Below the pieces are notes generated by a model that saw only the letters and a program-made list of their open reading frames with translations, ran no database searches and was not told the origin of the DNA. This document shows, in pieces, positions 2,481-61,392 of a DNA stretch of 64,000 bases. The stretch spans positions 32,711 through 96,710 of the forward strand of contig JAEELE010000074.1 in the NCBI GenBank assembly GCA_016288755.1. The letters are read 5' to 3'. The stretch comes from Oscillospiraceae bacterium. GTDB taxonomy: Bacteria > Bacillota > Clostridia > Oscillospirales > Ruminococcaceae. How positions within the stretch are numbered: the stretch's first letter is position 1; every line of letters begins with the position of its first letter. The position numbers were made by a program, and so were the translations under genes.

Positions 2481-2600
2481 TTCAGCCGTAATTCAGCGCT
2501 TCGCTAAAAAAATAACAGGCGAAAGAACCGGAAGTGACGGAACAACTCCTCACTTCTCACTTCTAACTTCTCACTTGACTTTCTGCGCCCTCCTGCCCGG
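2481..2600. repeat. Dispersed intergenic repeat, copy R1 (half element, pyrimidine-tract orientation)
   Basis: ggaacaactcctcacttctcacttctaacttctcacttgactttct from 2539. The upstream ttcagccgta... and downstream flank align with copy R5 (39521-39598). Confidence 0.8.
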
Positions 2601-10712: not shown

Positions 10713-11972
10713 TCAGACGGCGCGGTATTGCTTTCCGAAGAGCGATTCGATATAGCCGTCGAGCTCAAGCCCCGTCAGCGTGCTGAGCATGTCGCTGAGG
10801 TCGATGTCGAGCGCGCGGGCAATGTCGTCGGCATAGGTCGGTCCGTTCCGGCGCAGAAATTCCACGATCTGCCGCTCCGTCTCATCCTCCGGCAGCGGTG
10901 ATGTGCATTCCGCCGGTGCGGGCGGCTGCGGCGGCTTCTGCGGCTCGGGTGCCGCGGGCGCTGACTGCGGCTCGGGCTTCTGCGGATGCCGCTCGTCCGT
11001 GAGCGTCTCCGGTGCGCCGGCATAGACCGCGTGCGCCGAGACCCTGTCGCCGTCCGGCGGGAGCATGATATCCTGCGGATGCTCCGGGTAATAGAGATTG
11101 AGGATATCGCGGTGACTCATCAGCGGATAGGCGCCGTCGCGCAGCAGCGGCACGACGCCCGCATAGCGCGGGTCGAACAGATCGGCAGGCGGCACGGCGA
11201 AGAGATAGCGCCCCTGATCGAAGGCGCACTGCGCCGTGACGAGAGACCCCGAGCGCATCGCAGCCTCCATGACGGCAGTCGCCTCGCTCAGACCGCTCAG
11301 GATGCGGTTGCGGCGCGGGAAATTCGCCGGATAGGGCTGGATGCCGGGCAGATACTCCGAGAGCAGCAGCCCCTGCCCCGAGGAGAGCATCCGCTCGCGC
11401 AGCGCCGAATGCTCACGCGGATAGTTGACATTGATGCCGCAGCCGAGCACGGCGATTGTCTTGCCGCCGCAGTCGAGCGCCGTGGTGTGCGCGATCGCGT
11501 CGACGCCCTTTGCAAAGCCACTGACGATCACGAAATCGTTCTCCAGCAGATTTCTGAGGATGGTCGCGGTGACGCGCTCGGTGTAGGGCGAGGGGCGCCG
11601 CGTGCCGACGACCGACAGCGCGACCGGGCTGTGCAGCAGCGAGAGATTGCCCGCCGCTGTCAGCAGAATCGGCGGCGCGGAGATGCTCGAGAGCATCTCC
11701 GGATAATCGGGGTGATCCATCGGCAGCAGCGTGATGCCGTGCTGCAGGCAGTAATAGACAATGCTGTCCGCCTCGCCGATCGTATGCTTGACCATCTGCT
11801 GCTGCACATTCTGCGGTACACCGTGCACGGCTCCGGACTGCATTGCGTCATACAGTGCATCCGCCGAGCCGTATTCGCGGAGATACTGCAGCACCTTTGT
11901 ACTGCCGGGCTGAAAGACCATCGACAGCCAAACCCAGTATCGGAGCTGTCCCGGATCGCGTTGATCAGCCAT
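10713..11972 (-). CDS. dprA: DNA processing protein DprA (Smf)
   Basis: 419 aa. Rossmann-like DprA core SGFAKGVDAIAH...FPRRNRILSGLS...SGSLVTA. Pro-rich linker and a C-terminal winged-helix-like tail. Confidence 0.9.
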   Translation of the reverse strand: MADQRDPGQLRYWVWLSMVFQPGSTKVLQYLREYGSADALYDAMQSGAVHGVPQNVQQQMVKHTIGEADSIVYYCLQHGITLLPMDHPDYPEMLSSISAPPILLTAAGNLSLLHSPVALSVVGTRRPSPYTERVTATILRNLLENDFVIVSGFAKGVDAIAHTTALDCGGKTIAVLGCGINVNYPREHSALRERMLSSGQGLLLSEYLPGIQPYPANFPRRNRILSGLSEATAVMEAAMRSGSLVTAQCAFDQGRYLFAVPPADLFDPRYAGVVPLLRDGAYPLMSHRDILNLYYPEHPQDIMLPPDGDRVSAHAVYAGAPETLTDERHPQKPEPQSAPAAPEPQKPPQPPAPAECTSPLPEDETERQIVEFLRRNGPTYADDIARALDIDLSDMLSTLTGLELDGYIESLFGKQYRAV

Positions 11973-12869: not shown

Positions 12870-13226
12870 TTAGGAAAGCGCCGCCTTTGCCTGCTCGACG
12901 ATCTTGCTGAAGCCAGCCGGATCATGGATGGCAATCTCGGAGAGCATCTTGCGGTTGAGGGTGATGCCCGCCTTCGTGCAGCCGTTCATGAACGTGGAGT
13001 AGTTCACGCCGTTGAGCTTGCATGCTGCGGAGATGCGGGTGATCCACAGACGGCGGAAGAAGCGCTTGTTCTGCTTTCTGCCGATATAGGCATACTGGCC
13101 GGACTTCATCACCGCCTGCTTCGCCATCTTGAAGTGCTTGGATTTTGCGCCCCAGTAGCCCTTTGCGAGCTTCAGGACTTTATTTCTTCTCTTGCGCGTC
13201 ATCATTGCGCCCTTAATACGAGCCAT
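12870..13226 (-). CDS. rplT: 50S ribosomal protein L20
   Basis: 118 aa: [33 protein letters not shown]... Confidence 0.98.
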
Positions 13227-14475: not shown

Positions 14476-16314
14476 TCAGACCGGAAATTTGTCGATCAGA
14501 TGTGCAAGATACTCAAGCAGCAGGCTGCTGTCGTCCGCGGTGATGCCTTCGGCGCCGTTCATCTCGGCGTTGATCTTGCCCTGCGCCGAAACCTCGATCT
14601 CCTGATCCTCCGCGAGGAACCGCGCGAGCAGCACGGCATCCGCGACGTTCACCTCGCCCGAGCAGTCGACGTCGCCGGTCAGCTTGGTCAGGACCGGAGC
14701 GGTCGTATCGGGTTCTGTTTCGGTCGTGGTCGTGGTCGTTGTTGTCTCGGTGGTCGTTGTTGTGACGGTGGTCTCGGTGACCTGCGCCTCGCGCCGGACG
14801 ACGGCGGCTGTGTAGTTGACGACGCCGGAGCCGGTCGAATTGCTGCCGAGCACCAGCGACTCGTTTGCGCCGATCTCCTTCGAGAAAATTTCAAAGGTCA
14901 CGGTGTTGTCGGTGTTCGCGACAAGCCCGGTCTGCGTCCAGCTCTTCAGCCAGTTCGGCGTGATGCCCTGCTCCATCGAAAGGCGCGAATCGACCAGCAC
15001 ATAGACGGTGACATCCTCTGCCGCCTTGAGCGTGGCGCAGTCGCCGGACGCATTCTTGGAATCACATGCCGTGCGGATGTACTCCGCGCCGATCAGCTCG
15101 TTGGGCAGTGTGACGTAGGTGAAGGCGCGGTCGCCGAAGACGGCGTCGCCGACCCTGAGCTCGTCGTCGATGCCCCAGTCCGTGCCGGCGATCTGCTCGT
15201 GCACGGTCAGCTTTTCAATCAGCTCGCCGGAAAGTGTGGGCTCCTCCTCGGGCAGCAGCGCCAGATTGACAACATTCTTGCCCCAGTTGCCGTACCAGGC
15301 ATAGCCCGTGCGGCGCTCCTTGCTGATCTCGGAGACGTCGTAATGGACCGAGCTGTCGCGGTCGGAGAAGAGCGGAATCTGCCGGTCGATATCGTAGAAG
15401 CGCGCCCACAGCGGGTCGGCGTTCGCATCCTGCACGACGACCTTGTCATCGCCCTGCGAGACAAATTTGATGCCGGTCAGCGTGACCTTTTGGAACCACC
15501 TGATCGCGGCATTGACCGCGCGCACAATGTCGATGCGGTTGGTCTCCTGCGCGTATTTGTAGAGGAAGGTGATAACGCCCGCGGACTCGCTCGTGCACAG
15601 CGACGGCAGCTCATAGGCGCGTGCGGCAGCGGGAGCGAGCGTGTTCTCGTCGTGCTGCTGGCACCATGCGGTCTTGACGCCGTTGACGGTGATCTGCATG
15701 TCGAGCAGGCACTGGATCGCTTTCTCGAGCGACTGCCCCGCCTTCTGAGCATATTCGTCGCTGACTCCGGTGAAATCGCCGGTCTTGCTGCGCATTTCCT
15801 TCATGATGTCCATGATGTGGAGATAGGCGCCGTCATTGAGCGTGATGTGCGCGTGATAGGTGCCGGGCGTGTTGAGCACCTGCATGTAGCCGCCGTTGGA
15901 ATACTGCATCTTGAAGAGGCAGTCGATGCCGCGCATCGCACAGTCAAAGTATTTCTGCTGCCCGGTCGCCTTCCAGACGCGCATCAGAATGCGGATCTGC
16001 GAGGTGGTCGCATCGTTGTCGACCGTCGAGTGCGACCAGTCGCCGGTCTGCTCGGTCGCCATGCCCTTGCGCCAGCCGCCCTCGCCGGAGATCTGATACC
16101 TGATGCAGTCATCCGCGACGCCGATCGCCTCGGAGGACGATGCCCAGCTCGCGTCCTTTTTCAGATAGGTGCTCCACGGGTAGTCGTCGGCAGCGGCGGA
16201 GGCGGTGATCGCCTGCGGCGCGCAGGGCAGCGCATCGGGCAGATACGCCCCCAGCGACAGCAGCAGTGCTGCGCTCATCACGAAAGCGCCGCGGCGGAGT
16301 GTCTGTTTTCTCAT
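14476..16314 (-). CDS. Secreted pectate lyase (PL10-like) with a CBM-like module, Thr linker and type I dockerin
   Basis: 612 aa. Signal peptide MRKQTLRRGAFVMSAALLLSLGA. PelA/Pel-15E-like core (GEGGWRKG, VDNDATTSQIRILMRVW, MQYSNGGY). A ~140 aa beta-module (FGDRAFTYVTLPNELIGAEYIRTACD). Poly-Thr linker. Dockerin GDVDCSGEVNVADAVLLARFLAED...ITADDSSLLLEYLA. Confidence 0.75.
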   Translation of the reverse strand: MRKQTLRRGAFVMSAALLLSLGAYLPDALPCAPQAITASAAADDYPWSTYLKKDASWASSSEAIGVADDCIRYQISGEGGWRKGMATEQTGDWSHSTVDNDATTSQIRILMRVWKATGQQKYFDCAMRGIDCLFKMQYSNGGYMQVLNTPGTYHAHITLNDGAYLHIMDIMKEMRSKTGDFTGVSDEYAQKAGQSLEKAIQCLLDMQITVNGVKTAWCQQHDENTLAPAAARAYELPSLCTSESAGVITFLYKYAQETNRIDIVRAVNAAIRWFQKVTLTGIKFVSQGDDKVVVQDANADPLWARFYDIDRQIPLFSDRDSSVHYDVSEISKERRTGYAWYGNWGKNVVNLALLPEEEPTLSGELIEKLTVHEQIAGTDWGIDDELRVGDAVFGDRAFTYVTLPNELIGAEYIRTACDSKNASGDCATLKAAEDVTVYVLVDSRLSMEQGITPNWLKSWTQTGLVANTDNTVTFEIFSKEIGANESLVLGSNSTGSGVVNYTAAVVRREAQVTETTVTTTTTETTTTTTTTETEPDTTAPVLTKLTGDVDCSGEVNVADAVLLARFLAEDQEIEVSAQGKINAEMNGAEGITADDSSLLLEYLAHLIDKFPV

Positions 16315-24282: not shown

Positions 24283-24351
24283 AAGGAGTTGTTCCGCACA
24301 GACAGCCGGGAGCATCCTCATTTCTCATTTCTCACTTCTCATTTCTCATTC
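24283..24351. repeat. Dispersed intergenic repeat, copy R2 (short, internally deleted form)
   Basis: ggagttgttccgcacagacagccgggagcat (core at 24285-24295) is joined directly to cctcatttctcatttctcacttctcatttctcattc (24316-24351). Confidence 0.8.
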
Positions 24352-24387
24352 TGTGAAATATGTTCGCCGGGATTTTGTGTTTCCCCC

Positions 24388-24488: not shown

Positions 24489-26072
24489 ATGACTGCTTCC
24501 CAGATCATCACCCTTGTCGTGGTCATTGTCTATGCCGCAGCGATGGTCGCCATCGGCATTCTGACCTCGAGAAAGACCAAAAACGTCGACGACTTCGTCT
24601 TCGGCGGCAACAAGATCGGTCCGTGGATGACCGCATTCGCCTTCGGGACCGCGTATTTCTCCGCCGTCGTTTTCATCGGCTATGCCGGACAGTTCGGCTG
24701 GAGCTACGGTGTTTCCGCCGCGTGGATCGGCGTGGGCAATGCGCTGATCGGTGCGACGCTCGCGTGGGCGGTGCTCGGCAAGCGCACCCGCCTGATGACC
24801 AAGCATCTCGAGGCAAAGACCATGCCGGACTTCTTCATGAAGCGCTACGGCAGCAGCCCGCTCAAAACCGTCGGTGCACTGATCGTTTTCCTGTTTATGA
24901 TCCCCTACACCGCGTCGGTCTACAACGGTCTCTCGCGTCTCTTTGCAATGGCATTTGACCTTGGCGAGAACGGCTACGAATACGTCATGATCGCTATGGC
25001 GGTGCTGAGCGCGATCTATGTGGTGCTCGGCGGCTACTCCGCAACGGCGGTCAACGACTTCATTCAGGGCATGATCATGCTCATCGGCATCACGGCGGTC
25101 GTCATCAGCGTGCTCCGCGTCAACGGCGGTCTCGGCGGCTCGATTGACGCGCTGAAATCCGTCACGGCTGTCCCGGACGGCAAGCTCGCGTCCGTGTTCG
25201 GTCCGGACCCGATCAACCTCTTCGGCGTCGTCGTGCTGACCTCGCTCGGCACTTGGGGTCTGCCGCAGATGACCCACAAATTCTACGCCATCCGCGACGA
25301 GAAGGACATCAAGCGCGGTCTGATCATCTCGACCTTCTTCTGCTTCGTGGTCGCCGGCGGCTGCTATCTGCTCGGCGGCTTCACCCGTCTGTTCAACACG
25401 ACCGAGGCGGGCGAGGGCATCGGCTCCAACATGATTCATAAGCTCTCGAACGGCAAGCTCGAATTCGACGCGATGGTCCCCGCAATGCTCCAGCAGGCGC
25501 TGCCGAGCATTCTGATCGGTCTGGTCGTCGTGCTCGTGCTCTCCGCATCGCTCTCGACGCTCTCCGCACTGGTCCTGACCTCCTCCACCACGCTCGCACA
25601 TGACCTCATCCGCCCTGCCGCAAAGGGCAGGCTGGACGACAAGAAGGAATTCAAGCTCATGCGTGTGCTGATTCTCTTCTTCCTGCTGATCTCGGTCGTC
25701 ATCGCGATGAACAAGAATGCCGCGATCACGACGCTGATGAGCTACAGCTGGGGCGCGCTGTCCGGCTCCTTCCTCGGACCGTTCCTGTGGGGGCTCTACA
25801 GCAGGAAGACCACCCGCGCAGCCGTCTGGACGAGCTTTTGCTGCGGCGTGGTGTTCACGGTCGCGCACATGTGCATCTTCACGTTCTTCCGCGAGAGCTG
25901 CGCAGACATCGTGAAGTGGGCAGCCTCCCTGCCGCTCAACCTCGCAAGCCCGATCAACGCGGGCGCACTGCTCATGATCTTCTCGATCGTCATCGTGCCG
26001 GTCGTCTCCGCCTTCACCAAGCCGGTCGAGCAAAAGACCGTCGATGAGGCCTTCGCCGCATATCAGAAGTAA
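24489..26072 (+). CDS. Sodium:solute symporter family (SSF) transporter
   Basis: 527 aa with about 13 hydrophobic segments and an SSF-like N-terminus (GGNKIGPWMTAFAFGTAYFSAVVFIGYAG). The substrate cannot be determined from the sequence. Confidence 0.85.
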   Translation: MTASQIITLVVVIVYAAAMVAIGILTSRKTKNVDDFVFGGNKIGPWMTAFAFGTAYFSAVVFIGYAGQFGWSYGVSAAWIGVGNALIGATLAWAVLGKRTRLMTKHLEAKTMPDFFMKRYGSSPLKTVGALIVFLFMIPYTASVYNGLSRLFAMAFDLGENGYEYVMIAMAVLSAIYVVLGGYSATAVNDFIQGMIMLIGITAVVISVLRVNGGLGGSIDALKSVTAVPDGKLASVFGPDPINLFGVVVLTSLGTWGLPQMTHKFYAIRDEKDIKRGLIISTFFCFVVAGGCYLLGGFTRLFNTTEAGEGIGSNMIHKLSNGKLEFDAMVPAMLQQALPSILIGLVVVLVLSASLSTLSALVLTSSTTLAHDLIRPAAKGRLDDKKEFKLMRVLILFFLLISVVIAMNKNAAITTLMSYSWGALSGSFLGPFLWGLYSRKTTRAAVWTSFCCGVVFTVAHMCIFTFFRESCADIVKWAASLPLNLASPINAGALLMIFSIVIVPVVSAFTKPVEQKTVDEAFAAYQK

Positions 26073-26075
26073 TAC

Positions 26076-26462
26076 ACCAAAAGGGCTTGGGGTTCACGCT
26101 CCAAGCCCTTTGTCTGTCCAATGCAGGGAGGAGGGAGGAGGGAGAAGGGAGGAGTTGTTCCCGCACGGAGCCCGCGCTGGCATTTCCCCGGTCACCGTTT
26201 CGCGGAGCCTCCCAGTATTGTGCAGCACACGGCGCTGGCGCGCCTTCTTGCGGCGCGATACTCCCAGCCTTTGGCGAGATCAGCTGCTGAAAGAACAATC
26301 GTACAAGGGGTTTGGGGCTTGCCCCATTCAAATCCATCGCGTAGCGATTCCGCCATTATTCTTTCTTCTTTATTCTTTTCCTTCCTCCCTCCTTCTTCCT
26401 ATTTCCTACCTCGCAAAAAATGAACTGAGGGCTTGGAGTGTCACGCTCCAAGCCCTTTTGAT
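26076..26462. repeat. Dispersed intergenic repeat, copy R3: full-length palindromic-ended element flanked by duplicated hairpins
   Basis: Left hairpin GGGCTTGGGG-ttcacg-CTCCAAGCCC (26083-26108). Purine tract gggaggagggaggagggagaagggagg plus core ggagttgttcc (26126-26161). About 195 nt of conserved interior. Complementary pyrimidine tract (26357-26412). Right hairpin GGGCTTGGAG-tgtcacg-CTCCAAGCCC (26429-26455). Confidence 0.85.
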
Positions 26463-26476
26463 CTGTATACAATCAC

Positions 26477-27856
26477 TCACTGAAAGCGTATGACGATGAC
26501 ATTGAACGCTTCCTCCGTCATCAGCGACGCCTTTGCCCCGCCGACAAGTTCATACCCGTCCCCGCTATTCAGCAGCGCATTCTTTGCTGTTTCAAACACA
26601 CTGCGGTTTGCACAGCGGAACTCGAAAATATCGCCGTTCCGTTTTTTGCGCATCATCTTCTGCAGTGCCTCCGGCGAATACCGCTCAAGATACAGCCCGT
26701 TCTGCACATAATAGTTATACCTTGTCCCCCGGCAGTCCGGCACAAAGATCACATCATCTGCATACCTGCGGCTTCTGAGCATCTCCTCCGTTGTGATCAT
26801 GCAGTAGCAGTGTGTCATCCGGTCCTGATGCCGGTCACGCACCGCTTCGGAGGTGGGGTCATCATGCGTGAGGTCAATATAGTAGAACTCGTCGCCGAGC
26901 TGCACATAATTCCATGCGTGAACTCCGCCCGACTTCATGACCCCGCCGATAAAGCCGCAGCTGATCCCGAGCCGATGCATCAGAATCTGAAAGCCGCGGG
27001 TATACCCCGCACAGACCGCTTTCCCCTCCACCAGACAGCCGTATGCGCCAAACGCATGCGGATATTTGGTGAGACAGTCGTCGTGGCCATCCCCGTATCT
27101 GTATGCTTCATAGTGATATTCACAGTGATTTGCAATATAATCGTGGATCCAGATCATCTGATCGTAGATGCGGGGGCAGGCGCGGGCAGCATTCAGGATC
27201 TCCGTGATTTTCTGCTCCAGACGTCGTTTCTTCTCCGGGACAAGGCTGATGTCAAAGAATGTGCTGACCGTCAGCGTGGTCTTCATGTCCCGCACGACGT
27301 AGGAAGCGCCGCCGTTCATCCAGAAGATTTCGGGATGGTCGTCGCGGATATAACGGACCAGCTCAGCGGCTCGTTCCGGTTCAGAGTAGCCGAGCGAAAA
27401 GGTCGTTTTCATTTCCAGAATATTCCGGAGAATGATGCTGTACAGCTGCTTTTCCGAATCCGGCAGCGTTTCATAATTGAATCTGCGGACATTCCCCGGA
27501 CGGACCAAAGCGGCGAGCTCATCCGCGGCGGGAGGTGCGGGCGCTTTTGTGATGCCGCTCAGGATATTCTGCACAGCTGCGCCGTCGGATAACGCCCTGA
27601 TCACAGCTTCGCCCTTCCCTGTGCCGCTGCCGGATGATGCCGGTACGGGGCGTGAAGCTCCCGGAGCGGGTTTTGAAGCACCCGGTGCGGATTTGGAAGC
27701 CCCCGGAGCGGGACGTGAATCACCCGGTGTGGCTTTTGATGCTCCCGGAGCGGAGTCGGAGGGCTTCGGCGGATTGTTGTTCTGTGTCGGTTTCTTTCTG
27801 GATGCAATCAACAGGAACAAACCGAAGCACATTATGACGCCGATCACAAATACCAT
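26477..27856 (-). CDS. Membrane-anchored transglutaminase-like cysteine protease domain protein
   Basis: The ATG at 27856 follows GGAGGAATGG. An N-terminal TM helix, then Pro-rich PGASK repeats. Transglutaminase core with Cys...His...Asp context (GKAVCAGYTRGFQILMHRLG ... GGVHAWNYVQL ... YIDLTHDD). Confidence 0.75.
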   Translation of the reverse strand: MVFVIGVIMCFGLFLLIASRKKPTQNNNPPKPSDSAPGASKATPGDSRPAPGASKSAPGASKPAPGASRPVPASSGSGTGKGEAVIRALSDGAAVQNILSGITKAPAPPAADELAALVRPGNVRRFNYETLPDSEKQLYSIILRNILEMKTTFSLGYSEPERAAELVRYIRDDHPEIFWMNGGASYVVRDMKTTLTVSTFFDISLVPEKKRRLEQKITEILNAARACPRIYDQMIWIHDYIANHCEYHYEAYRYGDGHDDCLTKYPHAFGAYGCLVEGKAVCAGYTRGFQILMHRLGISCGFIGGVMKSGGVHAWNYVQLGDEFYYIDLTHDDPTSEAVRDRHQDRMTHCYCMITTEEMLRSRRYADDVIFVPDCRGTRYNYYVQNGLYLERYSPEALQKMMRKKRNGDIFEFRCANRSVFETAKNALLNSGDGYELVGGAKASLMTEEAFNVIVIRFQ

Positions 27857-27943
27857 GTTTCCATTCCTCCATGCAATACCGGCGCCGCGCCGTGATAGTT
27901 CGGTCGGGACGCACAAAGCCGAATCTGCGTGCGGATTGTTTTC

Positions 27944-29008
27944 TCACGCCTTCAGCGCGTTGACCACAAAGATAATCAGGCAGAAAGTCACCATCGACAG
28001 GAATCCGATATTGATGCAGGCAGTTTTGAACTGTTTATCCTGCGGCAGACGAATCAGCGGCGCCTCCAGATGAATTTTTTTGCGGTTGACGATCAGAACA
28101 ATGATGCCCGCGATTGCAACGGAATAGATCACGGCATCGTAGATCAGGAACGGGATCAGCTTGGGCAGCAGCTTCATTGCCTCGCTGATATCGCCGGACG
28201 CAATGCTCCGGATGCGCTCCCAACCGATGTTCCGCATCAGAGTGCCCGCAACGACTGAGCTGAGCGTGTTGATCGCCATGTGCAGAAAAATCGTGTTGAG
28301 GATGTTGCCGGTGCGCAGGTAGATATACGCAAAGAACATGCCGAGCATCGCGGCATAGAAAAACTGCGTGAAATTGCCGTGATACAGCCCGAACAGAATT
28401 CCCGAAAGCAGAATCGCCGTGCCTTCGCCGTATTTGCGGATTCGGTCGATCAGCACCTTGCGGAAAAGCATTTCCTCGACGATCGGTGCTCCGAATGCCG
28501 CGGCAAGCGTGAATAAGCCGTAGCCCTCGCTTGAGAAGCCGGTCTGCAGGAAGTCCGTACCGGTCTCGATATGGAAAAGCGCGCTGATGATATATGTCAC
28601 GACCGCACCTGCCAGCGCGCCGGTGACTGCCATGCCCTCACTCATGCAGAAGCACAGAAGCCACTGCCAGAAGCCCAGCTTATGCCGCGGCGGCTTTGAT
28701 GCAGCTATGGGCTTTGAGAGCAGCAGATACAGCGGAAATGAGATCAGGTACATGATGCCGAAATGTACCGCATACCGGACGGTGTTCGACAGCTTGTCGA
28801 CCGGGTGCCCGGTGAGCTGCAGCATCAGCGTGACCGCAAAAATCAGCGCCTCGCCGATGACGGCATAGAGCGCCAGATTCAGCATCGTGCGCGAATAGGT
28901 GCGGCGTGCAAACGGAACCGCCTCAGGGTGCTCCTGCAATTCCGGCGGCGTGCCCGGAGTCTCCGGCGGCTGCACGGGCTCAAGGCTGACATTGGTGTTT
29001 TCGTCCAT
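27944..29008 (-). CDS. CPBP family intramembrane glutamic endopeptidase (CAAX protease/Abi)
   Basis: 354 aa polytopic protein. Motifs EEMLFRKVL, LFGLYHGNF and FLHMAINT. Confidence 0.85.
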   Translation of the reverse strand: MDENTNVSLEPVQPPETPGTPPELQEHPEAVPFARRTYSRTMLNLALYAVIGEALIFAVTLMLQLTGHPVDKLSNTVRYAVHFGIMYLISFPLYLLLSKPIAASKPPRHKLGFWQWLLCFCMSEGMAVTGALAGAVVTYIISALFHIETGTDFLQTGFSSEGYGLFTLAAAFGAPIVEEMLFRKVLIDRIRKYGEGTAILLSGILFGLYHGNFTQFFYAAMLGMFFAYIYLRTGNILNTIFLHMAINTLSSVVAGTLMRNIGWERIRSIASGDISEAMKLLPKLIPFLIYDAVIYSVAIAGIIVLIVNRKKIHLEAPLIRLPQDKQFKTACINIGFLSMVTFCLIIFVVNALKA

Positions 29009-29017
29009 AATACCTCC

Positions 29018-29048
29018 AAAAAAGCAGCGGCATCGGAATGCCGCTGCT
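29018..29048 (-). terminator. Intrinsic terminator after the Pro-rich repeat protein gene
   Basis: The minus strand reads AGCAGCGGCAT-tccg-ATGCCGCTGCT followed by TTTTTT, which runs directly into the GGAGGT SD of the CPBP gene. Confidence 0.75.
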
Positions 29049-29062
29049 CTTGTCTGAACAGA

Positions 29063-31255
29063 TTATTTCTTGCCCTTACCGACAAAAGCACCGGTGGAAG
29101 GATCAATGCCGCGCGCACGGAGCTGCTGCTCAAACTGCGCATTGATCTTATCGAGCTTCTTGCGGCGCTTTGCCTCGGCAGCGGTGACAGGACCGGTCTG
29201 CTCGGGATCCTTGGGCTTCGGCGCCGACTTCTTCTTCGCCTTCTTCTCCGGCACGCGGTACTCGGTGAAGTGCACGACCGGACCGTCGTCCGTCTTCTTC
29301 TTGGAGGGGTCCTGAATACCCATCGTGTCCATCAGCTGCTCCAGATCAAGCACGGGAGCACCGGCGCCTGCCTGCGGGATGCCCGAGGCGCCGCCGACAA
29401 ACGGGGTCTTGGGCTGCTCAGGCGGTGCGCTGTAGACCGGCTCGGTGATCGGGATCGGGTTGCCGAGTGCGTCATAGGTCTGGAAGATCTGGTGACCATC
29501 TGCGCCGTAGCCGACAAACAGCGGCGTCGGGGCAGAGGGGTCGGGATTGCTGCGTGCAGCCGGCACGGAGAAGAGGCTGTGCTGCTGTGCGGAGGGCTGC
29601 TGCGGAGCTGCAGGCGCCGTCGGAACGCTCAGAACCGGTGCGGCGGGCTGCTGCGGCACACCGTAGCCCTGCTGCGGCGCAGCGGGAAGCGGTGCGGTCG
29701 GCACAGTCGGTGCGACGGTGCCCGGGAATGCGCCGTTCGGTGCAGCCGTGACCGGTGCTGCCGGAACCGGTGCGGTCGGCACCTCGAGCACGGGAACGCC
29801 TGCCTGCACACCGGTCGGCGCCGTCGGAACGGTCGGCACTGCGAATGCGGGTGCCTGCGGCGCGGTCGGGACGGTCGGGACGGTCAGTTCGGGCAGACCG
29901 GCTGCCTCTGCGGGAGAGGTCGGGACCGTCGGCACAGCGATCTCGGGGAAATCGTCGGCAGGAGCGCCCGGCATCACGAGGATGTCGTCAAGGTCGTCGG
30001 AGATCGGTGCGCCTGCCGGACGGCTGAACGCATCCAGCCCCTCGGCAGCGGGTGTCGGCGTGACGTCGACGATATCGGGAGCAGCCGCGCCGGGGAATGC
30101 AGATACGGGAACCTCATCGGGAACCTGAACACCGGAGCCGCCGTTGAAGATGCTGTCAGCCAGTGCATCGAATCCGGAACCGGGTGCACCGGGAACGCCG
30201 GTCGGCACGGTCGGGATCGCAAACTGCGAAAGCACATCGTCTGCGGGAGCCGGGGTCGGCGCGGCGGAGGGCATCGCGCCCGGAACGCCCGTCGGCACGG
30301 TCGGGATCGCAAACTGCGAGAGCACATCGTCTGCGGGAGCCGGAGCCGGGGTCGGCGCGGCGGAGGGCATCGCGCCCGGAACGCCCGTCGGCACGGTCGG
30401 GATCGCAAACTGCGAAAGCACATCGTCTGCGGGAGCCGGAGCCGGGGTCGGCGCGGCGGCAGGCATCACGCCCGGAACGCCCGTCGGCACGGTCGGGATC
30501 GCGAACTGCGAAAGCACATCGTCTGCAGGAGCCGGAGCCGGGGTCGGCGCGGCGGCAGGCATCACGCCCGGAACGCCCGTCGGCACGGTCGGGATCGCAA
30601 ACTGCGAAAGCACATCGCCGCCCGGAGCGGGTGCCGGGGTCGGCTGCGGCGTCGGTACGCCCGTCGGCACGGTCGGGATCGCGAACTGCGACAGCACATC
30701 GCCGGGTGCCGGAGACGGCATCACGCCGGGGATCGAGGTCGGAACGGTCGGAATACCGGTCGGCACGGGCGGGATCTGCTGAGCCGGAGACGGCATCGAA
30801 GCCGGGACGGTCGGAACCTCGGGCGGCGGCGCAACGATCGGCGCCTTTGCCTGCGCCTGAAGCTGCTGCTGCTGACGGCGCAGGGAGGGCGGGACATACT
30901 CTCCGCCTCTGCTGCCCGATGAGGACGGCGCGGAAGGAGACGGCAGGACAAGATCCTCGTCATCCTGATGATGCTTGGCGGCCGCACGCTCGCGCTTGCG
31001 CTCTTCCTTGAGCATCGCAGCCATTTCCTTGTTGTTTTCCCGGATCATCTTCTTTGCGATCACAGTCTTGCACTTTTCGCATTCGATGCGTGTGATCTGG
31101 GAAACATCGACGAGCTCACCGATCGTCGTGAAAGCACCGATGTTCTCAGGCTTTGTCAGGTTGATGCCGCATGCGGTTCTCTTCCCGCTCTCTGACGCAT
31201 GAACCTCCTTCGGGCGCCCGCCCTTGCCGGTTGATTGCAACAGGTCAACGTGCAT
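29063..31255 (-). CDS. Pro/Ala/Thr-rich repeat protein of unknown function
   Basis: 730 aa. ATG at 31255 lies 7 nt after GGAGGT. No signal peptide. N-terminal ~90 aa with Cys...CxxC (TACGINL...IECEKCKTV), then a charged KE-rich segment. Six tandem ~32 aa units (DDVLSQFAIPTVPTGVPGVMPAAAPTPAPAPA). Basic C-terminus. Confidence 0.8.
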   Translation of the reverse strand: MHVDLLQSTGKGGRPKEVHASESGKRTACGINLTKPENIGAFTTIGELVDVSQITRIECEKCKTVIAKKMIRENNKEMAAMLKEERKRERAAAKHHQDDEDLVLPSPSAPSSSGSRGGEYVPPSLRRQQQQLQAQAKAPIVAPPPEVPTVPASMPSPAQQIPPVPTGIPTVPTSIPGVMPSPAPGDVLSQFAIPTVPTGVPTPQPTPAPAPGGDVLSQFAIPTVPTGVPGVMPAAAPTPAPAPADDVLSQFAIPTVPTGVPGVMPAAAPTPAPAPADDVLSQFAIPTVPTGVPGAMPSAAPTPAPAPADDVLSQFAIPTVPTGVPGAMPSAAPTPAPADDVLSQFAIPTVPTGVPGAPGSGFDALADSIFNGGSGVQVPDEVPVSAFPGAAAPDIVDVTPTPAAEGLDAFSRPAGAPISDDLDDILVMPGAPADDFPEIAVPTVPTSPAEAAGLPELTVPTVPTAPQAPAFAVPTVPTAPTGVQAGVPVLEVPTAPVPAAPVTAAPNGAFPGTVAPTVPTAPLPAAPQQGYGVPQQPAAPVLSVPTAPAAPQQPSAQQHSLFSVPAARSNPDPSAPTPLFVGYGADGHQIFQTYDALGNPIPITEPVYSAPPEQPKTPFVGGASGIPQAGAGAPVLDLEQLMDTMGIQDPSKKKTDDGPVVHFTEYRVPEKKAKKKSAPKPKDPEQTGPVTAAEAKRRKKLDKINAQFEQQLRARGIDPSTGAFVGKGKK
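30186..30725. repeat. In-frame tandem DNA repeat, six units of 84-96 bp
   Basis: The anchor string ggaacgcc recurs at 30192, 30282, 30378, 30474 and 30570 (ggtacgcc at 30654). The central 96-bp units differ by only a few substitutions. Confidence 0.9.
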
Positions 31256-34647: not shown

Positions 34648-34778
34648 ATGCCTCAGCGGGATGCGGGGGTCCTACCGCAAGCACATGTCCCGATGCCCGG
34701 GCGCTGCGTGCTTTTCGTCCGCGCGGCAACTCCCCGTCCGCACGGCACTTTACGCAGGATCCTCTACTCTGACGCGGG
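34648..34778 (-). promoter_or_regulatory. THF (tetrahydrofolate) riboswitch aptamer
   Basis: The minus-strand RNA CAGAGUAGAGGAUCCUGCGUAAAGUGCCGUGCGGACGGGGAGUUGCCGCGCGGACGAAAAGCACGCAGCGCCCGG...GCAUCCCGCUGAGG matches the remembered THF-I pattern (AGAGUAG.UGAU.CGCGUUAAGUG...GGGA.GU...ACGAAGC...GCGC...GCAUCCGCUC). A folT context is typical. Confidence 0.8.
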
Positions 34779-36368: not shown

Positions 36369-36680
36369 ATGGAACATGATCTGAATACGCCGTGCTGCTG
36401 TCAGAAGCACACCGCGCGCTCCGACGAGGAGCGGAAACGGCTCATCAACCGCCTGAGGCGCATTGAGGGGCAGGTGCGCGGGCTGCAGAGCATGCTCGAA
36501 AAGGACGCCTACTGCACCGATATTCTCACGCAGTGCGCGGCGGTCAAGGCGGCGCTCAATGCCTTCGACCGCGATCTGCTCGCAAGGCATATCCGCACCT
36601 GCGTCGTGCGCGACCTGAAAAACGGCGACGAATCCGTCATCGACGAGCTCGCCGACACCATTCAAAGAATGATGAAATGA
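36369..36680 (+). CDS. csoR: CsoR-family copper-sensing transcriptional repressor
   Basis: LINRLRRIEGQVRGLQSMLEKDAYCTDILTQCAAVKAAL is a CsoR/RcnR signature with the ligand Cys. ATG at 36369 lies 6 nt after GGAGGG. Confidence 0.88.
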   Translation: MEHDLNTPCCCQKHTARSDEERKRLINRLRRIEGQVRGLQSMLEKDAYCTDILTQCAAVKAALNAFDRDLLARHIRTCVVRDLKNGDESVIDELADTIQRMMK

Positions 36681-36860
36681 GCGCGGAGCCCGCGCGGGCA
36701 TTTCCCTTCGGGTACATTGCAGCGGAGCCTCCCAATACTACATAATGCACGGCGCTGATCGCGCCTTCTTATCAGTCATTTCTCCCAATGCTTCTATAAA
36801 TCAGCGGCGGGAACAACAGCACCGGAACAGCTCCTCACTCCTCACTCCTAACTTCTAACT
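36681..36860. repeat. Dispersed intergenic repeat, copy R4 (left-arm half element) between csoR and copA
   Basis: gcgcggagcccgcgcgggcatttccc...gcggagcctcccaatacta...ggcgctgatcgcgccttctt aligns with 26165-26250 of R3. It ends with ggaacagctcctcactcctcactcctaacttctaact (36824-36860). Confidence 0.85.
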
Positions 36861-36903
36861 ATGCTTCCAACAGAATAGTTTTCTGCTCAAATAACGAAAG
36901 GGT

Positions 36904-39405: not shown

Positions 39406-39418
39406 CAGCCAAGAATCA

Positions 39419-39598
39419 AAGCGAGGAGTGAAAAGTGAGGAATGAGAAGTGAGAAACGGCGGTATCGCTTCGTGATGGATTTTGAATGAGGCAAGCCCCA
39501 AGTCCCTTGTGCAACCTTCGTTCAGCCGCTTATCCCGGATAACGGAACAACTCCTCCCTTCTCACTCCCAACTTCTCACTCGGCTTTCTCTCTCCTAC
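39419..39598. repeat. Dispersed intergenic repeat, copy R5 (right-arm half element, opposite orientation)
   Basis: Purine tract gaggagtgaaaagtgaggaatgagaagtgagaaa (39423-39456). ggcggtatcgcttcgtgatggattttgaatgaggcaagccccaagtcccttgt aligns with the reverse complement of 26296-26354. It ends with ggaacaactcctcccttctcactcccaacttctcact. Confidence 0.85.
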
Positions 39599-40943: not shown

Positions 40944-40973
40944 GGGCTTGGAGCACAAACTCCAAGCCCTTTG
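40944..40973 (+). terminator. Terminator hairpin belonging to the conserved GGGCTTGGAG...CTCCAAGCCC family
   Basis: GGGCTTGGAG-cacaaa-CTCCAAGCCC, then TTTG. The following ttgcttgtccgcaatacc resembles tttgtctgtccaatgc after the hairpin at 26083-26108. Confidence 0.7.
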
Positions 40974-42818: not shown

Positions 42819-43448
42819 GTGGCTTTTGACTACAAAAAGGAAATGAAGGCGCTCTACGCACCGAAGGCTGAGCCCGCGATCGTCACCGTGCCGAAGGCGG
42901 CGTTTCTCGCGGTGCGCGGCGAGGGCGACCCAAACGCCGAGGGCGGCAGCTATGCGCAGGCACTGAATGTGCTCTATGCCCTCGCCTACACGCTGAAAAT
43001 GAGTCCGAAAAGCGGGCACGCGATCCCGGGATATTTTGAATATGTCGTGCCGCCGCTCGAGGGCTTCTGGCGCACCGAGAAGCCCGGGATGCCCGACCTG
43101 ACCGACAAATCCGCGTTTCAGTGGATCTCGGTCATCCGCCTGCCGGAGTTTGTCACGCAGGCGGAATTTGCTTGGGCGGTCGAAATGGCATCGCGCAAAA
43201 AGCAGCTCGACTGTTCCGCTGCCGGGCTGCTGGAGATCGAGGAGGGGCTCTGCGTGCAGATGCTGCACGTCGGACCCTATGACAACGAGCCCGCGACCGT
43301 CGCGCGCATGGACGCCTTCGCCGCGGAGCAGGGCTATGTGACGGATTTCTCCGACACGCGGCTGCACCATGAGATCTACCTCTCCGACCCGCGCCGCACC
43401 GCCCCCGAAAAGCTGAAAACAGTCATCCGGCACCCGATCAGGAAATGA
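42819..43448 (+). CDS. GyrI-like small-molecule-binding domain protein
   Basis: 209 aa. Typical MAFDYKKEMKALY...FLAVRGEGDPN...EGFW...QMLHVGPYDNE...HEIYLSDPRR pattern. Confidence 0.75.
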   Translation: MAFDYKKEMKALYAPKAEPAIVTVPKAAFLAVRGEGDPNAEGGSYAQALNVLYALAYTLKMSPKSGHAIPGYFEYVVPPLEGFWRTEKPGMPDLTDKSAFQWISVIRLPEFVTQAEFAWAVEMASRKKQLDCSAAGLLEIEEGLCVQMLHVGPYDNEPATVARMDAFAAEQGYVTDFSDTRLHHEIYLSDPRRTAPEKLKTVIRHPIRK

Positions 43449-43521
43449 GAAATGAAAAATGAGAAATGAGAAATGGAGCAGTCACCTTTGCGCTGAAGCC
43501 TTTCGCAAGGATTGCTGCTCC
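43441..43521. repeat. Dispersed intergenic repeat, copy R6 (purine heptad tract plus hairpin)
   Basis: ggaaatgagaaatgaaaaatgagaaatgagaaatggag begins within the last codons and stop of the preceding gene. It is followed by the hairpin GGAGCAG...CTGCTCC (43475-43521). Confidence 0.75.
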
Positions 43522-45658: not shown

Positions 45659-47470
45659 TTACAGGGAGTCGCTCATTCCCGCAAGATATTCAAGGATGCA
45701 GGTCAGATCGTCGCTTGTCACGTCACTGTCGGTGTTGACATTGGCATTGAGCTTGCCCTGCGCGGTCACCGTCACATCGTGGTCCTCCGCGAGGAAGCGC
45801 GCCAGCAGCACGCAGTCCGCGACATTGACATCGCCGCTGCAGTCGACATCGCCGGGCGTCCGGGTGCCGGGCTGCGGGGTCGTTGTGGTCTCGGAGGTTG
45901 TGGTCGTCGTCGTGGTCGTGGTCGTCTCGGTCGTGGTCGTTTCCTGCGTCTGCTGCGAATCGCCGAACACAAACGACTCGTTGATCTCAGAAGCATTCTG
46001 CGCAACGGTCTTCATCGCGGAAGCATCGCCGCCGTAGAGGGAATACAGACCGGTGATCGCAAGCGCAAAGCAGGCGTTGTAGTCCAGCGCAGGCTCGGTG
46101 TACTGATACTTGTCGGCATGGTCCTCATAGCCGTTGTTGTCCGGACCGCCGACCATCGTGCCGTAAGGCGTGAACTTGATCTCGGGGTTCGACGCAAGCG
46201 ACTGCCCCTCCGAAAGATGCGCCGCCGCGCGGTGGTGGATATGCGTCGGCCACTTGCTGCCGTAGCCGACCACAAAGCTGTACCCATAGCTGTTGTTGCC
46301 GAGGATGTAGTCCATCTGGTATTTCGCCGCTTTTGCGTACTCAGAATCCTTGTCATCGCCGGCAGCCGTGAGCGCATCCATCTGGAGTGCGCAGTTGTAA
46401 CGGGAGTTGCCCCAGCCTGCATTGCCGTTGTAGGAGCTTGTGGAAAGACCGCCTGCATTCTTCATTTCGTAGATCAGCTCGTTCTTCCAGACTTCTTCGC
46501 CGGTCTTTTTGTACATCATCGCGGCATAGCCCTGCCAGGTCTTGTCCCATGTGAACTTCCAGCCGTCGTACTGACCGCCGGTGTAGGCTCCGTTTCCGGT
46601 AAGCTGCATCGAGGAACCGCTGCCCTCGCCGAGCAGCATGAGCCATGTATCGCACATGGCCTGCTCATCCTGATACTGCGCATCGGTGGAATAGAAGCTC
46701 ATGCCGTCGCAGTTGTTTCCGGTGTGCTGCGTGCCGAACGCCTCAAGCGCCTTGGCATATTTGATACACTTCTGCGCGTAGGCGGGGTCGGAATCCTTGA
46801 CAACATAAGCCGTGCCCGCCAGACCGGCTGCCATTTCACAGCAGACAGCAGAATTGTTTTTCGAGGCGGTCAGCCAATAGACCGTGCGCGCATAGGTCTG
46901 CTCCTCGGGCGGCGTAAAGATGCCGTGGTCGGTGTTGCCGTCGCCGACGGTACCCGCAACTGCAACAACATTGCCGCTCTCGTCGAGGAAGGTGGTCTTC
47001 ATCAGATAATCCGCACCGCGGCGAAGCACATAGATCAGGTGATCCTTGCAGCCCGCCTTCGCATAGACGCCCTCGCGCAGATACTCCGAGAGCGCGAGAC
47101 CGTTCAGCGCAAAGCCGATCGTGACGTTGAACTTCACATGGTCGCCGGCGTCATGATAGCCGCCGCTGAGATCGACATTGCCGTCGCCGTCCGGGTCGAC
47201 ATACTGCCGGATCGAGCCGTCGACGCCGCTTGCCGCACCCTGTCCGTCATAGGTGTGGCAGTCACCGCGCCATGTCAGCGGTCCGCCGGTGATGCCGGAG
47301 CCGCAGGCATTCGAGTCGTAGAAGTAGAGCGACATCGCGAGCGCTTCCCCGTAGTTGGGGTCTCCCGCATCTGCCGCGGCAGTCATCGGCGAATACGCCG
47401 CAGCGGTGCTCCCGAGCATGGCGGCACAGAGTATGCCGGCTGTCAGGCGCTTTTTGAATTGGTGCTTCAT
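45659..47470 (-). CDS. Cellulosomal GH9 endoglucanase (GH9 - Thr linker - dockerin)
   Basis: The ATG at 47470 follows GGGAGGAAA. Signal peptide. HDAGDHVKFNV and VVGYGSKWPTHIHHRAA. Dockerin GDVDCSGDVNVADCVLLARFLAED...VTSDDLTCILEYLA. Confidence 0.9.
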   Translation of the reverse strand: MKHQFKKRLTAGILCAAMLGSTAAAYSPMTAAADAGDPNYGEALAMSLYFYDSNACGSGITGGPLTWRGDCHTYDGQGAASGVDGSIRQYVDPDGDGNVDLSGGYHDAGDHVKFNVTIGFALNGLALSEYLREGVYAKAGCKDHLIYVLRRGADYLMKTTFLDESGNVVAVAGTVGDGNTDHGIFTPPEEQTYARTVYWLTASKNNSAVCCEMAAGLAGTAYVVKDSDPAYAQKCIKYAKALEAFGTQHTGNNCDGMSFYSTDAQYQDEQAMCDTWLMLLGEGSGSSMQLTGNGAYTGGQYDGWKFTWDKTWQGYAAMMYKKTGEEVWKNELIYEMKNAGGLSTSSYNGNAGWGNSRYNCALQMDALTAAGDDKDSEYAKAAKYQMDYILGNNSYGYSFVVGYGSKWPTHIHHRAAAHLSEGQSLASNPEIKFTPYGTMVGGPDNNGYEDHADKYQYTEPALDYNACFALAITGLYSLYGGDASAMKTVAQNASEINESFVFGDSQQTQETTTTETTTTTTTTTTSETTTTPQPGTRTPGDVDCSGDVNVADCVLLARFLAEDHDVTVTAQGKLNANVNTDSDVTSDDLTCILEYLAGMSDSL

Positions 47471-58843: not shown

Positions 58844-59605
58844 ATGAATGATTTGATGCAGGTGCTGCGGCGGATTTTCTCTCTGCACGGCGACTCCGCG
58901 ACCCATGAGGAGATCAAGGAGCGCATCATCTCCGGCGGACAGGTCACCGGCACGAACATGTGCGTGCTGATCTGCGCGATCCTCATTGCCTCGGTCGGGC
59001 TCAACACCGGCTCCGCCGCCGTCATCATCGGCGCGATGCTGATTTCCCCGCTCATGGGCAGTCTCCTCGCAATGGCATACAACACGGTCGCCGTGCACCG
59101 GCACCATCTGCGGCGAAATACATACGGCTTTGTGTTCCAGATTCTGATCAGCCTGCTGGTCTCGACGCTGTTTTTCCTTGTCTCCCCGGTCAATGCGCCC
59201 TCCTCGGAGCTGCTTGCGCGCACGAAGCCGACCTTCTTCGACGTGATCGTCGCGGTCGCGGGCGGGTTTGCGGGCATCATCGGCAACACGCGAAAGGAGC
59301 GCGCCAACAACGTCGTGCCCGGTGTCGCGATCGCGACGGCACTGATGCCCCCGCTGTGCACCTGCGGCTATTCGATCGCGCATGCACAGTGGCGGATGCT
59401 GCTCGGCGCGGCATATCTGTTCACGGTCAACTGCTACTTTATCTATATGTCCGCCGCGGTCATCCTCAGTGTGCTGAGCATCCCGCGCGAGACCGCGGTC
59501 ACCGATAAGGAGTGGAACCGCCTGCGCCGCCAAATGGTCCGCAACACGATCATCGTCGTGCTGCCGAGCATCATTCTCGCCTTCCTCATGACACACGACG
59601 GGTGA
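58844..59605 (+). CDS. DUF389 (TIGR00341-like) integral membrane protein
   Basis: 253 aa from the ATG at 58844 (TAGGAGTG upstream). Typical LICAILIASVGLNTGSAAVIIGAMLISPLMG and VPGVAIATALMPPLC segments. Confidence 0.75.
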   Translation: MNDLMQVLRRIFSLHGDSATHEEIKERIISGGQVTGTNMCVLICAILIASVGLNTGSAAVIIGAMLISPLMGSLLAMAYNTVAVHRHHLRRNTYGFVFQILISLLVSTLFFLVSPVNAPSSELLARTKPTFFDVIVAVAGGFAGIIGNTRKERANNVVPGVAIATALMPPLCTCGYSIAHAQWRMLLGAAYLFTVNCYFIYMSAAVILSVLSIPRETAVTDKEWNRLRRQMVRNTIIVVLPSIILAFLMTHDG

Positions 59606-59690
59606 AGCGGGAAATGAGAAATGAGAAGTGAGGAGTGAGGAGTTGTTCCCGTGTTTTGCAAAGCAAAACCGGCGCGTTTGCCGATCGGCA
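59606..59690. repeat. Dispersed intergenic repeat, copy R7 (purine tract + core + hairpins)
   Basis: gaaatgagaaatgagaagtgaggagtgaggagttgttcc (core at 59639-59649), then GTTTTGC-aaa-GCAAAAC and the palindrome tgccgatcggca. Confidence 0.8.
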
Positions 59691-61290: not shown

Positions 61291-61304
61291 CGCCCTTTCG
61301 GCAT

Positions 61305-61392
61305 GAGGCAGGAAGGAGGAGGCAGCAGGTGCCCGAAACCCGGGCTCAGCAGCAGAAATGAACTTGACGGAACAGCTCCTCCCTCCTCCGTG
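61305..61392. repeat. Dispersed intergenic repeat, copy R8 (miniature palindromic form)
   Basis: ggaaggaggaggcagcagg ... gcccgaaacccgggc ... ggaacagctcctccctcctccg (core at 61369-61379). Confidence 0.75.

Follow-up and report, generated by a model that had tools for sequence, protein, structure and literature searches.

A probable mosaic extragenic repeat with heptamer arms between two convergent genes of an Oscillospiraceae bacterium

The insert and its modules

We analyzed a 64-kb stretch of DNA from an Oscillospiraceae bacterium that lies on a single contig (here, the window; all coordinates are window positions) and focused on an insert at 26125-26412, in the gap between two convergent genes. 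To its left lies a sodium:solute symporter (SSF) gene on the plus strand (24489-26072; Pfam PF00474, E 2e-46) and to its right a strain-specific transglutaminase-like gene on the minus strand (26477-27916; Pfam PF01841), and a similar hairpin is found on either side of the insert. We consider it probable that the insert is a noncoding, nonautonomous member of a lineage-specific mosaic extragenic repeat family with interchangeable modules and that the flanking hairpins are separate from it. A first-pass annotation made from the letters alone had pointed to a purine tract plus core opposite a complementary pyrimidine tract, to two near-identical hairpins, and to the convergent genes, and all of these are present in the sequence.

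The insert decomposes completely into modules of the repeat family. Its left arm (26125-26154, plus strand) is a purine tract of heptamer units, (GGGAGGA)x4, that forms a 30-nt homopurine run, and the family core GGAGTTGTTCC (26151-26161, plus strand) is located at the inner edge of this arm. The core is followed by module B (26162-26284), which is ~125 nt long and inverted relative to the core (nhmmer match at 26166-26284 on the minus strand, E 4e-25), and then by a spacer, TGCTGAAAGAACAATCGT (26285-26302, plus strand), that we identified as the usual core-to-C linker using by-eye comparison with core+C copies. Module C (26303-26355, plus strand; nhmmer E 5.2e-20) here comprises the hairpins GGGGC-TTG-CCCC and ATCGC-GTA-GCGAT around ATTCAAATCC. 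It precedes, as module C always does, a C-linked pyrimidine tract of the TTATTCT/TTCTTCT type (26356-26380, plus strand), and the insert ends with the right arm (26381-26412, plus strand), a pyrimidine tract complementary to the GGGAGGA type that pairs with the left arm. The ~195-nt interior described in the first pass is not a unique filling, the inverted B and C being independent repeat modules. Judged from its sequence, the insert reads as the common form arm, core, spacer, C, arm with an inverted B joined directly to the core.

The pyrimidine-rich stretch at 26351-26412 holds a 28-nt homopyrimidine run (26373-26400); apart from this run and the homopurine run at 26125-26154, the 64 kb has no such run of ≥28 nt. 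Complementarity between the two arms reaches 89% over 19 nt, 82% over 22 nt, and 76% over 29 nt. In a predicted RNA fold of 26120-26415, an arm-arm helix closes both the minimum free energy and the centroid structures (-119.9 kcal/mol; z = -3.65); the arms had been expected to pair, as they do here, into a stem of roughly 30 bp, and the helix measures 24 bp. The fold of the opposite strand is less distinctive (z = -1.88). Folding of the insert as DNA gave a z of -4.61 relative to shuffled sequences. The left arm also contains a canonical four-unit G-quadruplex (G4) motif at 26126-26149 (candidate sequence GGGAGGAGGGAGGAGGGAGAAGGG).

Folding is the sole activity that we would predict for the insert: its GGGAGGA-type arms would form a stem of ~24 bp in read-through RNA or extruded DNA, the left arm is predicted to carry a G4, and folding of this kind may add to the insulation between the convergent genes. 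A stronger version of this idea is that the insert is a functional cis-acting or RNA element, such as an insulator, an mRNA 3'-end protector, a G4 or triplex switch, or a protein array that reads GAG/GGA motifs spaced by 7 nt. Folds more stable than those of shuffled sequences as both RNA and DNA, and the canonical G4 motif, would fit such an element, as would the fact that other phyla have abundant heptamer repeats for which a regulatory or G4 role has been proposed (PMC4679880, PMC4692102). We nevertheless consider a functional element unlikely, in part because a scan of 25800-26800 called no promoter-like sites inside the insert and Rfam, searched at gathering and permissive thresholds, returned no family for it (best match in 25950-26600 at E 0.95). 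A blastn search against plasmid and phage records gave nothing matching the insert. An invertible promoter (inverton) was rejected based on the lack of a promoter-like site inside the insert and of any orientation polymorphism in 55 orthologous locus pairs.

The repeat family

A metagenome scan with the arm-core junction pattern returned at least 116 loci, mostly in sister assemblies of the same project. Together with loci fetched earlier, these amount to 1.13 Mb from the same and related populations, to which all family statistics in this text refer. Among the loci listed, we counted 149 core-pattern matches and 281 tracts with a lag-7 periodicity. The family is built of four kinds of module, i.e., heptamer tracts, the core, module B, and module C, and the recurrence of these modules across the 1.13 Mb confirms that the insert belongs to a dispersed repeat family, as the first-pass annotation had proposed. 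The core has the consensus GGAG(T/C)TGTTCC and matches the window seven times compared to 1.85 expected. Purine or pyrimidine tracts with a 7-nt period occur at nine sites in the window, and the core is present at seven of these.

The heptamer tracts are of several types: GAGAA(A/G)T, GG(G/T)AGGA, GT(G/T)AG(G/C)A beside the core, and AAGAATA linked to module C. Usually, the core forms the loop of a local hairpin, the stem of which is built from heptamers (AGTGAGGAGTTGTTCCGTCACT). Module B, which is rich in hairpins, had 107 nhmmer matches, including 42 unique full-length copies, and is found beside the core in both orientations. Module C (~55 nt) had 30 matches, each followed by ATTATTCTTT-type repeats.

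Pairing is maintained in both structured modules. In the terminal hairpin of B, GC[GC][CG]GG-GCT-CC..GC, two pairs covary between CG and GC (20/17 and 31/8, respectively), and 92% of cells are paired. The covariation score of a hand-drawn B structure exceeded those of all 500 shuffles, while RNAalifold on the 42 B copies yielded just two short invariant helices and no covariation. In the second hairpin of module C, CG, GC, and UA pairs occur at one stem position. These compensatory changes in the B and C hairpins are in favor of a functional element, and so are the many tracts that start at stop codons and the TGA-containing heptamers, which stop all three frames. The orientation of the modules relative to neighboring genes, by contrast, is unbiased (B, 46 co-oriented and 37 opposed; C, 18 and 8), which argues against such a function.

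Purine tracts that start at or overlap an upstream stop codon were observed at many loci. In the window, they comprise a GAGAAAT-type heptamer tract at 43437-43481 (plus strand), which overlaps the stop codon of a gene, and a single-arm copy (arm and core) at 59596-59654 (plus strand) directly after a stop codon. With a unit length of 7 nt and a TGA or TAG within the unit, a run of three units places a stop in all frames, and a Shine-Dalgarno-like GGAG follows each of these stops.

We looked for the family elsewhere. The module C motif, used as an exact pattern against representative genomes, gave only three chance matches, all within coding sequence. In viral contigs, the arm-core pattern had no matches, and the B motif had seven, all of them on inspection in unrelated, apparently coding sequence. 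A literature search on these sequences, the assembly accessions, and Oscillospiraceae repeat families found no description, and the family is apparently undescribed.

Several IMG/VR contigs (L138/L152, L142, L147/L150, and L141/L144/L155) contain a (GAGGAGT)n or (GAGAAGT)n array, a short loop, and a complementary pyrimidine array. The G+C content of the contigs with such inward-facing heptamer arrays ranges from about 0.35 to 0.71, and in L147/L150, the interior between the arrays resembles module C. By sequence resemblance, heptamer arms that face inward may extend far beyond this mosaic repeat family. In L033 (3423-3700), three units composed of GG(T/G)AGGA tracts, GTGAGGA tracts, and the core are arranged head to tail 92 nt apart, indicating that arm units are also able to amplify in tandem. 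Tandem GGGG-loop-CCCC-AAACCCC units are present downstream of the symporter gene in L008 (11600-11760) and L009 (4420-4480), in which the symporter is 86% identical. This different repeat is similar to the first module C hairpin in reverse complement, ATGGGGCAAGCCCCAAACCCC.

Arm polarity, module order, and flanks

Among tract pairs within 600 nt, 57 had a purine tract followed by a pyrimidine tract and none had the reverse order, while same-sense pairs numbered 16 and 15. These counts support that inward-facing arms are a genuine family property. However, the arms are not specific to the element that carries them: normalized arm complementarity averaged 0.441 within elements vs 0.452 between elements (p = 0.65; insert, 0.40), and left and right tract types show no association within elements. 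The arms of the insert can pair because both happen to carry the GGGAGGA type. Of the terminal inverted repeats suggested in the first pass, the inward two-armed architecture is upheld, but inverted repeats of the transposon type are not. That the arms are not co-adapted is also difficult to reconcile with a functional element.

The heptamer-array ends, the fixed inward polarity, and the conserved 11-nt core might together define a new mobile or recombination-driven element, the arrays of which would be made by an unknown core-recognizing protein or a replication-coupled process; insertion of such an element into a cruciform-prone terminator might duplicate the entire hairpin, which is the arrangement found at this single locus. 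We judge this possibility to be rather doubtful.

The 53 unique two-armed elements display 14 module orders, of which core only (22 elements), core+C (10 elements), and core+B (4 elements) are the most frequent, while the order core, inverted B, C occurs in 1 of the 53, i.e., in the insert. The insert had been described as the only copy with both arms, and the shorter copies had been interpreted as deletion derivatives of it. Neither description holds. A copy at 39417-39596 (minus strand; fold z = -3.97) also has two arms, the core, a spacer, and module C, corresponding to the canonical core+C form, and a short copy of the core-only class at 61300-61392 (minus strand) is also two-armed. The short copies in the window fall in the commonest module-order classes. 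The insert is a one-off composite rather than a master copy or the key to the family. Further copies in the window are a copy with arm, core, and direct B between csoR-like and copper ATPase genes (36668-36864, minus strand), a copy with core and pyrimidine arm upstream of the symporter promoter (24283-24352, plus strand), and a single-arm copy with arm and core (2524-2596, minus strand).

Insertion of an element of the miniature inverted-repeat transposable element (MITE) type into a bidirectional terminator would account for the two hairpins as a long target-site duplication of ~35-40 bp. The two-armed architecture is real, the hairpin copies flank exactly the element, and the flank-to-flank similarity of the insert (24.5) exceeds the maximum of 13.5 observed for mismatched flanks from different elements. 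Yet, none of the other 51 two-armed elements has duplicated flanks (similarity of ≤10; the comparison would miss duplications of less than about 9 bp), the arms are not element-specific inverted repeats, and no recurrent transposase-like (nonorthologous) family was found among 1,432 open reading frames (ORFs) in the 1.13 Mb, a search that the first pass had suggested. No RAYT was seen in the fetched loci either. Moreover, a terminator-like hairpin adjoins just 8.8% of tract ends, compared to 1.9% of random positions. We rejected the idea that the family targets terminators, as the value for tract ends is no more than expected for intergenic DNA. The family also does not show two defining features of MITEs, element-specific terminal inverted repeats and a target-site duplication at each copy. 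An origin of the insert by MITE-type insertion is, in our assessment, improbable.

The flanking hairpins

The left hairpin, H_L (GGGCTTGGGG-ttcacg-CTCCAAGCCC; 26083-26108), is of the terminator type and lies 10 nt after the symporter stop codon. The right hairpin, H_R (GGGCTTGGAG-tgtcacg-CTCCAAGCCC; 26429-26455), is a near-duplicate of H_L: the two are ~90% identical, including their 3' tails, and have direct repeats of 18 nt (exact) and 12 nt (92%) in common, while shuffled sequence yields none. Such a close match is in favor of MITE-type insertion. H_R is the only terminator-like site called in 25800-26800 (minus strand, 21 nt past the transglutaminase-like stop codon); the tail of H_L, TTTGTCTGT, is weak, and the terminator scan does not call H_L. 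The two flanking copies had been recognized in the first pass, but a third paralogue at 40944-40969 had been missed. It follows a gene located downstream of a sigma factor gene; this downstream gene is a putative anti-sigma gene, called so from its position only.

Even in a relaxed form, the hairpin was found at only three positions in the 1.13 Mb, all of them in the window. We could therefore discard the hairpin as a genome-wide REP-like unit as well as the earlier suggestion that it is the outermost module of the element. The three occurrences, together with the lack of duplicated flanks in the other 51 two-armed elements, suggest that the hairpin is a terminator duplicated locally rather than a module of the element.

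The symporter of L006/L007 is 94% identical, and its gene is followed by one hairpin only, GAGCCCGGGG-tatacg-CTCCGGGCTC. This hairpin has the G-T wobble and the loop of H_L, indicating that it is the positional orthologue of H_L, and it differs from H_L by compensatory stem changes. A second hairpin in L006, GGGCCCGGAG-ccatgca-CTCCGGGCC, is located after the gene downstream of the sigma factor gene, as is the third copy in the window. The two L006 hairpins (11602-11627 and about 12925-12950) flank a 393-aa gene and no repeat element. A single orthologous hairpin at a position that lacks the element is in agreement with MITE-type insertion, but the L006 pair around the 393-aa gene and the third copy at 40944 imply that duplication at this locus needs no element. 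The stems of all hairpin copies in the window genome have TT/AA, and those of all L006 copies have CC/GG. These genome-specific changes point to concerted change among the hairpin paralogues. The copies are positioned at synteny breakpoints, and between the window and L006, the ATPase-sigma block has the opposite orientation with respect to the symporter gene.

With a G+C-rich stem-loop, a T run, and a position past a stop codon, both hairpins have the layout of intrinsic (rho-independent) terminators. Based on these sequence comparisons, H_L and H_R are predicted terminators of the two convergent genes that would form a small, locus-specific paralogous set outside the element and would thus have been copied around a rearrangement-prone locus. 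The layout would also permit the second copy to have arisen when the element arrived, but nothing else in the family speaks for this.

Relatives and strain variation

None of the relatives examined has the element at the corresponding intergenic position, an observation that MITE-type insertion would also explain. In L005 and L157 (symporter 97% and 95% identical, respectively), the symporter gene is followed by an unrelated hairpin, hairpin X, and then by an Rce1-like gene; both lack a 1.85-kb block composed of H_L, the element, H_R, and the transglutaminase-like gene. In the window, hairpin X persists, with the Rce1-like gene on one side and the transglutaminase-like gene on the other. The genes downstream of the symporter gene differ in every relative.

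These rearrangements raise the possibility that the insert is a by-product of local events in which the transglutaminase-like gene was acquired beside the terminator of the symporter gene and recombination or template switching between palindromic terminators gave rise to the second hairpin, with the element later filling the gap between the two copies or being carried in. The transglutaminase-like gene has no close homologue (a homologue search gave nothing above 34% identity apart from the protein itself), and it is missing from L005 and L157 along with the rest of the 1.85-kb block, while hairpin X survives in the window. The post-symporter gene order, which differs between all relatives and is inverted relative to L006 with hairpins at the junctions, and the stem changes that the hairpin copies of each genome share also fit this scenario. 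On the other hand, the order of events is not reconstructable from the loci in hand, and the G+C content of the transglutaminase-like gene (0.52-0.60, vs 0.60-0.63 for the symporter gene) is not clearly foreign; we rejected foreign composition of the gene, as this difference is not decisive. We regard local rearrangement as quite unlikely to be the explanation of the insert. It would account for the hairpins and not for the nature of the element, and it is compatible with, rather than opposed to, a mosaic repeat.

The first-pass annotation had proposed comparing the locus in close relatives. Absence of the element and the single orthologous hairpin in L006/L007 were both observed, but none of the relatives had a precise empty site, and neither did the loci of the 95% and 87% symporter orthologues when these were looked up. 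In L005, 19.7 kb are syntenic with a part of the window in which three element sites lie, and these 19.7 kb are free of tracts. At each of the three shared sites, L005 has some other short sequence in place of a clean junction, and the short sequences at two of them are possible remnants. Family members are present elsewhere in L008/L009, and L010 and L158 have none.

Comparisons between strains revealed changes within copies. In the near-identical strains L027 (484-558) and L070, the purine arms differ by exactly one GGAGTGA unit, showing that tracts behave as variable-number repeats. In L093 (415-739) and L108, which have the same intergenic site with conserved flanks and arm plus core, L093 has two inverted B modules while L108 has unrelated inner modules. 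Similarly, in the ATPase-sigma gap, the window has arm-C-arm, and L006 has a B fragment. That near-identical strains differ in module content at one site and that the closest relative has no elements at all three shared sites count further against a functional element. More generally, the patchiness of the family argues against an old conserved regulatory role and fits invasive or rapidly turning-over repeats.

Interpretation and known repeat systems

We suggest the following for the mosaic repeat family to which the insert probably belongs. Copies would spread and reshuffle by recombination or gene conversion between dispersed copies, heptamer tracts would lengthen and shorten by replication slippage, and copies would persist mainly in intergenic DNA.

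Several points weigh against this interpretation. The conserved core and the absolute polarity of the arms suggest the involvement of a specific protein or process, which passive repeats would leave unexplained. Where a tract adjoins a gene end, it abuts or overlaps the stop codon in about one-third of cases, which could reflect function. Given the lack of a clean empty site and the possible remnants in L005, the elements may have been lost in L005 just as well as gained in the window. The scan pattern contained the core, so that the copy statistics are biased to core-bearing forms, and the gene calls behind the context statistics are crude (greedy, longest ORF).

In enterobacteria, bacterial interspersed mosaic elements/repetitive extragenic palindromes (BIME/REP) are extragenic, highly repeated mosaics of short palindromic units and linkers in both orientations, often between convergent genes or within operons. 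Their module composition per site differs between strains, and their stems keep pairing by compensatory changes. The family in the window is likewise extragenic, highly repeated, and mosaic in both orientations, with maintained pairing and strain-variable site composition. It differs from BIME/REP in having heptanucleotide microsatellite arms with strict inward polarity, longer modules (55 and 125 nt), and a Firmicute host, and in that no RAYT-type transposase was seen in the 1.13 Mb.

In Streptococcus pneumoniae, BOX elements have the organization boxA-(boxB)n-boxC, and RUP and SPRITE repeats are also known. Like BOX, the family described here is found in a Firmicute, is noncoding, modular, and dispersed in intergenic DNA, varies in the number of an internal unit, and has long predicted stem-loops; BOX has no transposase of its own, and none was found for the family in the 1.13 Mb. 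The resemblance is in organization only, and the two are not known to be related in sequence. In addition, the variable unit is 7 nt long and located at the ends rather than 45 nt long and in the middle, and module order and orientation are much freer.

In cyanobacteria, short tandemly repeated repetitive (STRR) sequences are heptamer repeats. Intergenic TAACTGA heptamer repeats have been described in Beggiatoaceae, Cyanobacteria, and Bacteroidetes (PMC4679880) and GGGNATC G4 heptamer repeats in Xanthomonas and Nostoc (PMC4692102). The arrays in the window share with these three types tandem 7-nt units in variable number, enrichment in noncoding DNA, and frequent location near stop or start codons, and the GGGAGGA type forms a four-unit G4 motif in the insert, similar to the GGGNATC repeats. 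However, those are free-standing direct repeats, whereas the arrays here are joined to a core and structured modules and occur as inward-facing purine/pyrimidine pairs. With MITEs such as Correia/NEMIS, the family has in common that it is small, noncoding, intergenic, patchy, and of high copy number, with two inverted ends; it differs in that no element-specific terminal inverted repeats, no target-site duplication, and no related transposase were detected and in that its conserved sequence lies inside the arms and not at the tips. By analogy, the family appears to be organized like BIME/REP and BOX and to combine this organization with heptamer simple-sequence repeats.

If this interpretation is correct, the host group carries roughly one mosaic repeat per 5-10 kb, and these repeats turn over between strains that are >90% identical. 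Such repeats break metagenome assemblies, supply substrates for rearrangement, and put long hairpins, G4 motifs, and ribosome-binding-site-like arrays between genes, and their strain-level length polymorphisms could serve as markers. No described repeat family is known to explain the absolute inward polarity together with the conserved core, and these two features are a starting point for finding the generating process.

Host and other features of the window

A contig of GCA_016295295.1 encodes an identical symporter protein, and the nearest named homologues of this protein are in Oscillospiraceae and Ruminococcus metagenome-assembled genomes (84% identity). A gene for a GH9 cellulase adjoins in the window neighborhood. 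From these homologues and the cellulase gene, we infer that the host is an uncultured cellulolytic Oscillospiraceae bacterium, and the sample labels suggest that it originates from the rumen.

At 27857-27943, the ORF list places the start of the transglutaminase-like gene at a TTG codon (27916; 479 aa), while the public annotation starts 60 nt later (459 aa). The later start leaves space for the remnant of hairpin X, the terminator of the Rce1-like gene in L005 and L157.

The window contains other repeats. At 30147-30722, five to six tandem 96-nt repeats that are up to 96% identical lie within a pair of ORFs (28763-30922, plus strand, and 29063-31255, minus strand), and we take them to be a repeated protein domain. 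GGTCGT-rich repeats at 14694-14799, 45859-45958, and 47807-47912 are common to several large ORFs, and 111-nt repeats are common to 14567, 21036, 45744, and 47686; both are taken to be linker or domain repeats of carbohydrate-active enzymes that are unrelated to the element. Finally, a tetrahydrofolate (THF) riboswitch at 34652-34773 (minus strand) scored 78.8 bits compared to a gathering score of 36 and is the sole Rfam family above threshold in the window.

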